From the sequence record NC_054919.1: a stretch of DNA of 64,000 nt. The stretch is one strand, 5' to 3'. Under the pieces are notes generated by a model. That model worked only from the letters and a program-made list of their open reading frames with translations. It ran no database searches and was not told the DNA's origin. Positions 40,272-48,208 of the stretch are shown in pieces. Numbering within the stretch: position 1 is the first letter of the stretch; each line of letters opens with the position of its first letter. This DNA is from Escherichia phage vB_EcoM_G4507. A program made the position numbers and the translations under genes.

Positions 40272-41859
<1,588 letters not shown>

Positions 41860-41867
41860 AATAAAAT

Positions 41868-41881
41868 GGGCCTTGCGGCCC
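41868..41881 (-). terminator. hairpin GGGCC-GCAA-GGCCC between nrdB and denA
   Basis: 5-bp GC stem with GNRA-type loop (minus-strand sense). Confidence 0.45.
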
Positions 41882-41886
41882 ACTCC

Positions 41887-43065
41887 TTAAAAGTATTTTT
41901 TAAAACTCATCATAACTTTATCATCAACATCATTATCAATCTGTGCAACAAGGTAAGATGACAGTTCTACTTCTTGTGGCGCGGATTGAACATTATCAGA
42001 ATTAAGATATTCACGAATCCAAGGATACGGATGTTTAACCGGAGCATCGGTAATTGGGCATGGAAGACCACACTGTTTCATACGAGATACAGTTAAGTAA
42101 TCAATAAAGCTCCACATGCTATTTGTATTTAATCCAGGAACATCGCCGTCTTTAAATAAATGAACTGCCCAATCTTTTTCTTGGCGGTTAACTTCCATGA
42201 AAATATCAACTGCTTCTTGTTCACACTCTTGAGCAATTTTAACCCATTCATCGCCATCAGTGCCAAGTTGAAGTTGACGAATAATATATTGGGTGCCTTT
42301 AAGGTGAAGCTGCTCATCACGTGCAATGAACTTCATAATCTTGGCATTACCTTCCATGATTTCCATGTTTTTATGGAAGTTAAAGGTACATGCGAAAGAT
42401 ACATAAAAACGAATAGCTTCCAATGCGTTGATTACATGCAAACAGAGGTAAAGAGATTTCATTAGCTCACGCTTCCAATATGTCTCATGCTCAATAGCAT
42501 CTTCAATAACGTCTTCGTCTGCATTAATTTCTTTTTGGTATTCGATATCAGCTTTAGCGTTTTCCCAATAACGAGTTTTAATCAGAACATCATCATAATA
42601 ACGTCCAATGGATTCAGCACGTTTCATAATAGCTTCATCTAATACAATTTCATCAAATACCTTCGATGGATCAGTATAAAGATTTCGCATGATATGTGTA
42701 TATGAACGGCTGTGAATAGTTTCACTAAAAGTCCACGTAGCAACCCATGTATCAAGGCTTGGGTCTGAAATTAATGACATAAGTACAGCAGACGGCGCAC
42801 GACCCTGAATGCTATCCAAAAGTGATTGATACTTCAGATTATTAGTAAAAATATTTTGCTGATACTGAGGAAGCTTATTAAACTGTGCAGCATCCATCAT
42901 CAAGTTTACTTCTTCAGGACGCCAGAAAAATGATAATTGCTTTTCGGTTAAATCTTCAAAAACTTTATGACGTTGAATATCATAACGCGCAATACCAAGA
43001 CCTGAACCAAAAAACATAGGTTCTTTTAAAACATCAACTGGATTTGTATTAAAAACTGTGCTCAT
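41887..43065 (-). CDS. nrdB: ribonucleotide reductase small subunit NrdB (continuous, no intron)
   Basis: 392-aa uninterrupted ORF MSTVFNTNPVDVLKEPMFFGSGLGIARYDIQRHKVFEDL... Confidence 0.93.
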   Translation of the reverse strand: MSTVFNTNPVDVLKEPMFFGSGLGIARYDIQRHKVFEDLTEKQLSFFWRPEEVNLMMDAAQFNKLPQYQQNIFTNNLKYQSLLDSIQGRAPSAVLMSLISDPSLDTWVATWTFSETIHSRSYTHIMRNLYTDPSKVFDEIVLDEAIMKRAESIGRYYDDVLIKTRYWENAKADIEYQKEINADEDVIEDAIEHETYWKRELMKSLYLCLHVINALEAIRFYVSFACTFNFHKNMEIMEGNAKIMKFIARDEQLHLKGTQYIIRQLQLGTDGDEWVKIAQECEQEAVDIFMEVNRQEKDWAVHLFKDGDVPGLNTNSMWSFIDYLTVSRMKQCGLPCPITDAPVKHPYPWIREYLNSDNVQSAPQEVELSSYLVAQIDNDVDDKVMMSFKKYF

Positions 43066-45938: not shown

Positions 45939-46250
45939 TTACACCGCCATTTTTCCTTTCAAGACGCCGTGGGGCTGATAATCTTTGAGAACGAAATCTT
46001 TAGGCCTGAGTTTAAGAATGTATTCCAATTGTTCTTTAGTAGAAAGATAGCGGAATTTATAAGGCAATCCGCCTATTACCAGTTCACAAAGCTCTTTAGG
46101 TTCACGACGCAAAATTTCTTTACATTGTTCTACGTGATTCATATAGATATGAGTATTACCACCGGAAAATATCAAATCTCCCGGAATAAGATTACACATC
46201 TTAGCTACAATATGAACTAACGTAGCATATGATGCAATATTAAATGGAAG
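45939..46250 (-). CDS. td: thymidylate synthase, exon 2
   Basis: Exon starts CTACCGTTTAAT (LPFNIASYATLVH...) directly after the intron terminal G; joins in frame with exon 1 for a 286-aa product. Confidence 0.9.
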   Translation of the reverse strand, partial: LPFNIASYATLVHIVAKMCNLIPGDLIFSGGNTHIYMNHVEQCKEILRREPKELCELVIGGLPYKFRYLSTKEQLEYILKLRPKDFVLKDYQPHGVLKGKMAV

Positions 46251-47266
46251 CATTATGTTCAGATAAGGTCGTTAATCTTACCCCGGAATTATATCCAGCT
46301 GCATGTCACCATGCAGATCAGACTATATCTCCAACTTGTTAAAGCAAGTTGTCTATCGTTTCGAGTCACTTGACCCTACTCCCCAAAGGGATAGTCGTTA
46401 GGCATTTATGTAGAACCAATTCCATTTATCAGATTTTACACGATAAGTAACTAATCCAGACGAAATTTTAAAATGTCTAGTTGCATCTGCTGCACAATCA
46501 AAAATAACCCCATCACATGAAATCTTTTTAATATTACTAGGCTTTTTACCTTTCATCTTTTCTGATATTTTAGATTTAGTTATGTCTGAATGCTTATGAT
46601 TAAAGAATGAATTATTTTCACCTGAACGATTTCTGCATTTACTACAAGTATAAGCAGAAGTTTGTATGCGAACACCGCACTTACAAAACTTATGGGTTTC
46701 TGGATTCCAACGCCCGTTTTTACTTCCGGGTTTACTGTAAAGAGCTTTCCGACCATCAGGTCCAAGTTTAAGCATCTTAGCTTTAACAGTTTCAGAACGT
46801 TTCTTAATAATTTCTTCTTTTAATGGATGCGTAGAACATGTATCACCAAACGTTGCATCAGCAATATTGTATCCATTAATTTTAGAATTAAGCTCTTTAA
46901 TCCAAAAATTTTCTCGTTCAATAATCAAATCTTTCTCATATGGAATTTCTTCCAAAATAGAACATTCAAACACATTACCATGTTTGTTAAAAGACCTCTG
47001 AAGCTTTATAGAAGAATGGCATCCTTTTTCTAAATCTTTAAAATGCCTCTTCCATCTCTTTTCAAAATCTTTAGCACTTCCTACATATACTTTATTGTTT
47101 AAAGTATTTTTAATCTGATAAATTCCGCTTTTCATAAATACCTCTTTAAATATAGAAGTATTTATTAAAGGGCAGTCCTACAATTTAGCACGGGATTGTC
47201 TACTAGAGAGGTTCCCCGTTTAGATAGATTACAAGTATAAGTCACCTTATACTCAGGCCTCAATTA
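46251..47266 (-). ncRNA. self-splicing group I intron of td (1016 nt) carrying the I-TevI ORF
   Basis: Exon 1 ends CTTGGGT; intron begins UAAUUGAGGCCUGAGUAUAAGGUGACUUAUACUUG... and ends ...AUG. Boundaries give exactly 1016 nt and a uninterrupted td reading frame. Confidence 0.9.
46398..47135 (-). CDS. I-TevI: GIY-YIG homing endonuclease I-TevI (intron-encoded)
   Basis: 245 aa; MKSGIYQIKNTLNNKVYVGSAKDFEKRWKRHFKDLEKGCHSSIKLQRSF... with zinc finger CKCGVRIQTSAYTCSKC and C-terminal DNA-binding region. Confidence 0.93.
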   Translation of the reverse strand: MKSGIYQIKNTLNNKVYVGSAKDFEKRWKRHFKDLEKGCHSSIKLQRSFNKHGNVFECSILEEIPYEKDLIIERENFWIKELNSKINGYNIADATFGDTCSTHPLKEEIIKKRSETVKAKMLKLGPDGRKALYSKPGSKNGRWNPETHKFCKCGVRIQTSAYTCSKCRNRSGENNSFFNHKHSDITKSKISEKMKGKKPSNIKKISCDGVIFDCAADATRHFKISSGLVTYRVKSDKWNWFYINA

Positions 47267-47815
47267 ACCCAAGAAAACATCTACTGATCGTTGATACCAC
47301 TGCAAATCCAAATAGCCATTACGCACATTAAACTGATAGAACATATGACAAGGCGGTAATGCCATTTGCTTAAGTTCTGCCGGATTCCATGCTGAAACAA
47401 TTTGACGCCTATCATTTGGCAGTTTTTTAATACGATCAATAACTTCTATAATTTGGTCTACACCGCCAAAATCACGCCATTGTTTTCCATAAATTGGACC
47501 AAGTTCACCGCTATGGTATCCTAAATCTTTTGCTTGATTTTCGTAATTTTCATCCCAGACTGTTTTGCCTTGAATTAATGAATTATGTTGAATTAATCGC
47601 AAATCATTTACGTTAGTACTTCCTGATAAGAACCACAATAACTCAGAAATACATGCATTCCAGGCGAGCTTCTTAGTTGTTACTGCAGGAAAACCTTTAG
47701 TTAAATCCCAGCGTAATTTAGTACCGAACAAAGCAATTGTTCCTGTGCCCGTTCGGTCATCAGTTTCATAACCATTTTCAAAAATGTCTTTAATTAAATC
47801 TTGGTATTGTTTCAT
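47267..47815 (-). CDS. td: thymidylate synthase, exon 1
   Basis: 183 codons MKQYQDLIKDIFENGYETDDRTGTGTIALFG... ending VDVFLG, then in-frame UAA at the first intron codon. Confidence 0.9.
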
Positions 47816-47860: not shown

Positions 47861-48208
47861 TCAATACGGTTTAGCATCAAATTTTCTCTCAATTTCAGGC
47901 GTGAAATATAATTCTTTACCGCGTTTGGAAAAGCGACCAATAATATGATAATTATTCTCATCAAACGTGATATTACCAATATCCATAGCTTTCAACCAAA
48001 TATCGATATTTCTATCCAGCTTTATGTCAAAATTCCAATACGGAGAACTATTACCGAAAATACTGCAAGCGGATTCAGTGAAACAACTGCTATAAATCTT
48101 GTCTTTAGGAACTACTAATTGATAGACACCTTTAATAAACTGAGGACCCTGCCATTTAGGTTGTTTCTCATCTTTTTCTAATAGAATAGGGTAATAATTA
48201 AAATTCAT
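47861..48208 (-). CDS. hypothetical 115-aa protein inserted between frd and td
   Basis: ORF starts 19 nt after the frd stop (co-transcribed); no recognisable motif. Confidence 0.55.
   Translation of the reverse strand: MNFNYYPILLEKDEKQPKWQGPQFIKGVYQLVVPKDKIYSSCFTESACSIFGNSSPYWNFDIKLDRNIDIWLKAMDIGNITFDENNYHIIGRFSKRGKELYFTPEIERKFDAKPY

Follow-up and report, generated by a model that had tools for sequence, protein, structure and literature searches.

The thymidylate synthase gene (td) of Escherichia phage vB_EcoM_G4507 is, with near certainty, interrupted by a 1016-nt self-splicing group I intron that encodes the endonuclease I-TevI. In the window, that is, the whole 64,000-nt stretch of DNA analysed, the gene is on the minus strand, like all features described below, and comprises exon 1 at 47267..47815, the intron at 46251..47266 and exon 2 at 45939..46250. 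As an element known from the 1980s onwards, the I-TevI-encoding td intron ranks among the best studied of the mobile introns, and what is seen here is its classical form in another T4-like genome; the present analysis established its exact boundaries, the identities of the encoded proteins, the ribozyme fold with its covariation, the regulatory sequences and the presence/absence polymorphism of the locus.

The exon and intron boundaries had been proposed in an earlier note from the sequence, and every coordinate and length held to the base when the minus strand was read between 45800 and 47950, the ORF list was consulted and the lengths were counted by script (549 + 1016 + 312 nt). Exon 1 consists of 183 codons ending in UUGGGU (TTGGGT in the DNA), and its reading frame runs through ...GTTTTCTTGGGT directly into TAA, that is, bases 1-3 of the intron (47264..47266) form the predicted UAA in the frame of exon 1. 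The intron RNA reads UAAUUGAGGCC...CAUAAUG with a terminal G (in the DNA, TAATTGAGGCC at the 5′-end and CATAATG at the 3′-end), and exon 2, which contains 103 codons and a stop codon, starts with CUUCCAUUUAAU encoding LPFN. Joining position 47267 to 46250 kept the frame and gave a 286-aa product, the predicted ligated-exon sequence being ...UUCUUGGGU followed by CUUCCAUUU... The ORF list contained three separate ORFs at 47264-47815, 46398-47135 and 45939-46253, the last of which has 104 codons as called, its start ATG being formed by the final three bases of the intron. The note had expected an ORF caller to report two unrelated proteins plus the endonuclease; the three separate ORFs were indeed there, but the two fragments were not unrelated, as both matched the thymidylate synthase (TS) profile PF00303.

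The restoration of a 286-aa enzyme by exon joining was borne out by an end-to-end match of the spliced protein to the crystal structure of T4 TS, 1TIS (residues 1-286 of both, E=4.9e-191), and by a score of 318.8 bits against PF00303 (ThyA) over profile positions 1-266. Exon 1 covered positions 1-175 of this profile and exon 2 positions 176-266, and since the two spans abut at 175|176, the junction is exact at the resolution of the profile. The catalytic PPCH motif at residue 154 is intact, including the catalytic Cys, and purifying selection acts on both exons (pN/pS 0.05-0.34 against six relatives, 0.05-0.12 for exon 1), which argues that td is expressed as a whole. When a synthetic 300-nt spliced junction was used as a query, many phages were found in which both halves are contiguous. 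Intronless alleles, with which the note had asked for a comparison, showed the same continuity at the insertion point: td of T2 and vB_EcoM_P8 is uninterrupted, 861 nt long and reads through the same position as ...GTTTT(C/T)CT(T/C)GGT|CTTCCATTTAAT...

The canonical td secondary structure (P1, P2, P3-P6, P6a, P7, P7.1, P7.2, P8, P9, P9.1, P9.2 and P10) was placed on the intron, and 77/77 canonical pairs proved to be standard pairs; folding into a P1-P9 core, on which the earlier interpretation depended, was thereby found, with all canonical helices from P1 to P9.2 and also P10 being formed. At the 5′-end, P1 (47252..47273) pairs the exon sequence CUUGGGU (47273-47267) with the internal guide GCCUGAG (47258-47252), and the 5′ splice site follows U47267 (U-1), which makes a U.G wobble with G47258 in 10/10 natural variants. 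All seven pairs of P1 are kept in the ten variants (100% paired), with one-sided variation in three of them, and this helix was also placed by the RF00028 alignment of the identical sequence. The P10 guide GAG (47259..47261) pairs with bases 1-3 of exon 2, CUU (46250-46248); its third pair is G.U, U-A or A-U depending on the phage and is unpaired in 3/10. P2 is the hairpin UAUAAG-GUGA-CUUAUA at 47236..47251, identified by pair counting. The 5′ strands of the core occupy 47178..47228 (P3 at 47228-47223, P4 at 47219-47214 and 47195-47190, P5 at 47209-47207 and 47201-47199, the 5′ strand of P6 at 47189-47188 and that of P6a at 47182-47178), while the 3′ strands of P6a (CUACA, 46413-46409) and P6 (GC, 46403-46402) lie at 46402..46413 within the final codons of the I-TevI ORF (UAC AUA AAU GCC UAA), an overlap of the ORF end and the intron core that was noted for T4 as well (PMC2988022). 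The 3′ catalytic core extends over 46299..46396 and contains the 5′ strand of P7 (46396-46391), P7.1 (46390-46381), P7.2 (46376-46363), P3′ (46357-46352), P8 (46351-46332), P7′ (46326-46321) and P9 (46316-46299); it is followed by the peripheral helices P9.1 (46298-46283) and P9.2 (46282-46262) at 46262..46298, likewise assigned by pair counting. The 3′-end of the intron, ...AUAAUG with its terminal G, is the same in 10/10 variants.

The minimum free energy folds of P1 alone and of a mis-chosen P2 segment gave z values of -0.67 and 0.15; short helices cannot be separated from shuffled sequences by energy, so pairs were counted on an alignment of ten natural td-intron variants with 78-100% intron identity. 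Over these variants, 99.3% of the pair cells were paired compared with 30-42% when the partners were slid by 1-3 columns, and five compensatory pairs (two in P8, two in P9.2, both from Melville, and one in P10) were detected versus 0 in every slid control. In 500 shuffles, neither the percentage of paired cells nor the number of compensatory pairs or of compensatory cells nor the covariation score was ever as high as observed. Covariation came only from P8, P9.2 and P10, and one-sided changes occurred in P1, P6a, P7.2, P9 and P9.2, while the P3-P7 core helices are invariant across the variants; the assignment of P3-P7 is consequently based on sequence conservation and the RF00028 alignment and not on covariation. 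P7.1 (CCC-UUUG-GGG, 46390-46381) and P7.2 (GGGUC-AAGU-GACUC, 46376-46363) were formed in 10/10 variants, with a single G.U to A-U change in U5. The T4 td intron is said to have been classed as IA2 by Michel and Westhof in 1990, with P7.1 and P7.2 between P7 and P3′ reportedly defining this subgroup. The IA2 label, itself taken from the literature, is consistent with the P7.1 and P7.2 helices found here. P2, P7.1 and P7.2 serve the classification of group I introns (PMC3984707). Splicing of the T4 td intron is documented (PMC2988022, PMC3984707), and by its 99.7% identity to that intron the element described here would also be expected to self-splice in a guanosine-initiated reaction.

In the whole 64,000-nt window, the Rfam model RF00028 gave no match at its gathering score of 50 bits. 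In E-value mode, however, the 3′ half (P7-P9) reached 42.5 bits (E=4.3e-9), and the 5′ part alone gave 16 bits over P1-P6 (E=0.036) and aligned in the same manner as introns lacking the ORF. The score remained below 50 bits on the ORF-bearing introns of T4, RB3, U5, TuIa, HMGUkp2 and Melville and on that of F1, which carries a partial deletion (446 nt), whereas the naturally ORF-deleted introns of Shinka, PD112 and HMD-9 scored 66.9, 73.8 and 72.7 bits, respectively; intronless loci gave no match to the model. The miss is explained by the 738-nt ORF that sits in the P6a loop. Taking the Rfam miss as evidence against an intron was rejected, since the proven intron of T4 is missed as well and three ORF-less copies pass, and it follows that a negative default Rfam scan cannot rule out ORF-bearing group I introns.

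The ORF looped out of P6a (46398..47135) encodes the 245-aa GIY-YIG endonuclease that the earlier note had described, and its Pfam domains and PDB matches are those of I-TevI. The protein is composed of a GIY-YIG nuclease domain (residues 1-97), a linker with a zinc finger (149-179) and a DNA-binding domain (192-242), and it scored 66.8 bits with PF01541 (cut-off 22.6), 73.4 bits with PF22635 (27) and 108.9 bits with PF20987 (27). It is identical to the 1LN0 and 1MK0 structures except for the engineered R27A and E75A substitutions, and to 1I3J except for A219T. Compared with the T4 ORF, there is one nonsynonymous and one synonymous change, and A219T is the sole protein difference from both T4 (244/245 identical) and RB3; residue 219 is Ala in all six other homologues, so that A219T occurs only once in the set of seven I-TevI sequences.

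The start of the I-TevI ORF is embedded in sequences that resemble the control elements of T4. A 12-bp hairpin at 47134..47165 encloses the Shine-Dalgarno sequence GAGG together with the first two bases (AU) of the start codon, which it would sequester; its energy is -11.6 kcal/mol (z=-5.6), and 0/200 shuffles were equally stable. An operator-like copy of the homing site lies at 47159..47183 with 14/20 identity to TTGGGTCTTCCATTTAATAT, and a late-promoter-like box, (T)AATAAATA at 47167-47159, overlaps both this site and the 5′ arm of the hairpin. The segment from GCCC through the ATG is identical to that of T4, and just upstream there is one T fewer than in the old T4 reference. In T4, the hairpin, the late promoter and the operator together limit I-TevI translation to late transcripts and bring about autorepression, and td splicing is impaired when the control of I-TevI expression is lost (PMC2988022). 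In exon 1, the pentamer CAACG at 47289..47293, which lies within the codons of a conserved YQR at -27..-23 from the insertion site, matches the CNNNG cleavage motif of I-TevI and is found at the same distance in the intronless td of T2 and P8. Since I-TevI cleaves at a distance of 23/25 nt with a preference for 5′-CNNNG-3′ (PMC2988022), the position of this candidate cleavage site fits the published distance.

By analogy with the experiments carried out with T4, the intron of this phage would be expected to splice and to home, and I-TevI to repress its own synthesis; the following course of events is proposed. On the pre-mRNA, a ribosome translating exon 1 would halt at the UAA with which the intron begins, which would end translation of the unspliced RNA; such an in-frame stop has been seen as a ribosome-stalling device that lets the intron fold, the ribosome acting as a chaperone of the T4 introns (PMC3984707). 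The intron would then adopt the P1-P9.2 ribozyme fold, an external guanosine would attack after U47267 within the U.G pair of P1, and the freed 3′-OH of exon 1 would attack after the terminal G46251, by which ...VFLG would be joined to LPFN... in the 286-aa enzyme. In read-through transcripts of the early and middle periods, the I-TevI ORF in the P6a loop would have its ribosome-binding site and start codon locked in the hairpin, and it would be translated only from the late transcript, which would start inside the 5′ arm of the hairpin, while I-TevI may in turn repress the late promoter through the operator that mimics the homing site. In a mixed infection, I-TevI would bind the intronless td around the insertion site and cut it 23/25 nt upstream at CAACG, and repair off the intron-bearing allele would copy the intron in.

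The distribution of the intron agrees with its being mobile. It was detected in 288 phage records and in full length in 195, with 185 being ≥99% identical, and many intronless td alleles exist alongside the 195 records with the full-length intron. In each of five comparisons the intron was more conserved than the flanking exons: its identity was 99.7% in T4 (exons 1 and 2, 93.8 and 87.8%), 96.6% in U5 (84.0 and 70.6%), 90.0% in TuIa (77.8 and 68.6%), 87.6% in HMGUkp2 (70.9 and 65.7%) and 78.1% in Melville (73.0 and 66.3%). The presence/absence polymorphism together with the stronger conservation of the intron indicates that the element spread horizontally by homing. The T-even intron survey of Sandegren and Sjoberg from 2004 reportedly described this pattern of spread by homing, and we take the td sequences of U5 and TuIa (AY262155 and AY262157) to originate from that survey.

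Other explanations of the interrupted gene were weighed against a functional intron. If the 1016 nt were a dead insertion, td would be a pseudogene with nonfunctional fragments and the phage would use the host thyA; this would agree with the automatic annotation of the identical segment as two fragmentary CDSs and with the absence of an Rfam match at the gathering score, but T4 itself is missed by Rfam too, the frame, the catalytic PPCH and a pN/pS of 0.05-0.34 are kept in both exons, compensatory changes accompany the conservation of the ribozyme core, and the T4 intron, only three substitutions away, self-splices experimentally, all of which makes a pseudogene extremely improbable. A two-subunit enzyme could arise without RNA splicing if a 183-aa N-terminal fragment were combined with a 104-aa C-terminal fragment initiated at the ATG at 46253. 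An in-frame ATG exactly at the 3′-end of the intron and the 104-aa protein given by ORF callers speak for this, and older T4 literature describes an N-terminal TS fragment made from unspliced RNA. However, this ATG is the intron terminus ...AUAAUG itself, with the obligatory terminal G and invariant in 10/10 variants, it is not preceded by a Shine-Dalgarno sequence (CUUAUCUGAACAUA) and lies just past the P9.2 helix. Moreover, the break would fall within the conserved DVFLG|LPFNIASY motif and relatives have one continuous TS chain, leaving this explanation a practically negligible probability.

The endonuclease raises a different question, as the intron might splice while I-TevI has been inactivated or retargeted by A219T, in which case a stranded, nonmobile intron would be heading toward the loss of its ORF. 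The uniqueness of A219T among the seven I-TevI sequences is compatible with such a state, and so are the at least four independent ORF deletions in relatives, which show that decay of the ORF is frequent. Nevertheless, the ORF is of full length with intact catalytic and DNA-binding domains far over the Pfam thresholds, it differs from T4 merely by one nonsynonymous and one synonymous change, and I-TevI binding is tolerant of sequence variation (PMC2988022), thus we consider a stranded intron very unlikely. The only allele-specific features are A219T in I-TevI and the exon-2 sequence CUUCCA, which differs from the T4 homing site, and exon differences from T4 resume at -22 and +3. One could speculate that A219T, located in the helix-turn-helix subdomain, and CUUCCA fine-tune I-TevI binding or autorepression for co-circulating td alleles, in which case the divergence at -22 and +3 beside a near-identical intron would imply that homing took place very recently and that its co-conversion tract was unusually short, but we hold this to be very unlikely.

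The reading of the locus as a split td with a functional I-TevI intron has a consequence for annotation. Over the td segment, identity to Escherichia phage vB_EcoM_G10400 (MK327937), a Tequatrovirus, reaches 100%, and MK327937 is annotated with two "putative thymidylate synthase" CDSs and a "group I intron endonuclease", which is the split annotation that the earlier note had foreseen. Many T4-like genomes have been deposited with td as two fragmentary CDSs, and joining them matters for gene counts and metabolic inference. G10400 was the closest relative in the collection searched, with an identity of only 97.7% for a 22-kb query. In the window, nrdB (41887-43065) is continuous and intronless, encoding 392 aa, and no mobE gene was found between nrdA and nrdB, whereas in G10400 (MK327937, 138500-140500) nrdB is interrupted by an intron that holds an ORF of 810 nt (269 aa), probably an I-TevIII-like one. 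The nrdB intron is thus subject to presence/absence polymorphism between near-identical phages, and this difference together with the 97.7% identity over 22 kb shows the phage to be a mosaic relative of G10400. A 144-aa ORF with a GIY-YIG-like motif lies just downstream of nrdB (41449-41883); where it lies, denA (endonuclease II) is a more probable identity than a homing endonuclease. Between frd and td, a 115-aa ORF was seen at 47861-48208 with no Pfam match. T4 lacks this ORF, its frd and td genes overlapping each other, but RB3 has it (RB3_232), and it also occurs upstream of td in T2. Other relatives carry a different small ORF at this place (with DUF4858 in Shinka), so that the frd-td junction is a variable spot.

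The nearest known counterparts are the td introns of T4 and RB3. The T4 td intron is said to be the first intron discovered in a prokaryotic system. In T4 the same gene is interrupted after ...UUGGGU, the helices, the hairpin and the late-promoter box are the same, and 1013/1016 intron positions (99.7%) are identical; in RB3 the intron has the same 1016-nt length and 1014/1016 identical positions. In the curated records of T4 (NC_000866, AF158101) and RB3 (KM606994), td is joined from two pieces and I-TevI is annotated between them. The three differences from T4 are at intron positions 263 (synonymous, K44), 786 (A219T) and 949 (A for C), the last being in the segment that connects P7′ with P9, where RB3 also has A. 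Identity to T4 drops to 93.8% in exon 1 and 87.8% in exon 2, and exon 2 starts with CUUCCA here compared with CUACCG in T4, which gives P10 its third (G.U) pair. The old T4 reference (AF158101, NC_000866) contains ACTTGCCC in place of the ACTGCCC found here, in RB3 and in newer T4 records, so that its intron is 1017 nt long versus 1016 nt here and in the newer records MT984581 and OZ035787. The extra T falls at about intron position 93 (in the 47174 region), inside the operator-like site, and is probably an error or a strain variant.

Introns lacking the ORF are inserted at the same site in Shinka (320 nt; L003, 751-1070), PD112 (262 nt; L004, 751-1012), HMD-9 (254 nt; L012, 701-954) and F1 (446 nt; L013, 701-~1146) and have a near-identical core. 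They retain the 3′-terminal 27-79 nt of the I-TevI gene and are therefore derived from an ORF-bearing intron like the one described here; since they lack the endonuclease, they cannot home on their own. The multiple alignment showed that the Shinka intron differs from the present one by a 696-nt deletion and three loop substitutions only, and the global pairwise identities of Shinka, PD112 and HMD-9 were disregarded as large-gap alignment artefacts. At least four different deletion end points are represented among these natural mini-introns, in which the life cycle of a homing endonuclease has reached its degeneration stage, and in HMD-9 the 5′ strand of P6a was lost and a new GUUC-UUUU-GAAC hairpin is present instead.

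More distant td introns are found at the same site and with the same architecture in U5, TuIa, Klebsiella phage HMGUkp2 and Salmonella phage Melville, where a 245-aa I-TevI homologue is encoded; they show 78-97% intron identity and 11-67 amino acid changes in the endonuclease, and they are the source of the compensatory changes in P8, P9.2 and P10. Short matches were also seen elsewhere: the P7′/P9 segment (46298-46349, intron positions 918-969) has 33-52-nt matches of 88-100% in unrelated phages, namely Escherichia phages cardinal, VEcB and phiWec187 and Campylobacter phage A145, and intron positions 43-84 have a 42-nt exact match elsewhere in phage F2; these matches probably stem from further group I introns that have core sequence in common. 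The intron with I-BmoI in the thymidylate synthase gene of a Bacillus phage similarly combines a group I intron in a TS gene with a GIY-YIG endonuclease, but it belongs to another phage lineage and its endonuclease is only distantly related. The T4 introns in nrdB (I-TevIII) and nrdD (I-TevII) come from the same phage group and are of the group I class, whereas their host genes and endonucleases are different; in these introns, too, the endonuclease ORF is looped out of the core and is controlled by a late promoter and a hairpin (PMC2988022).
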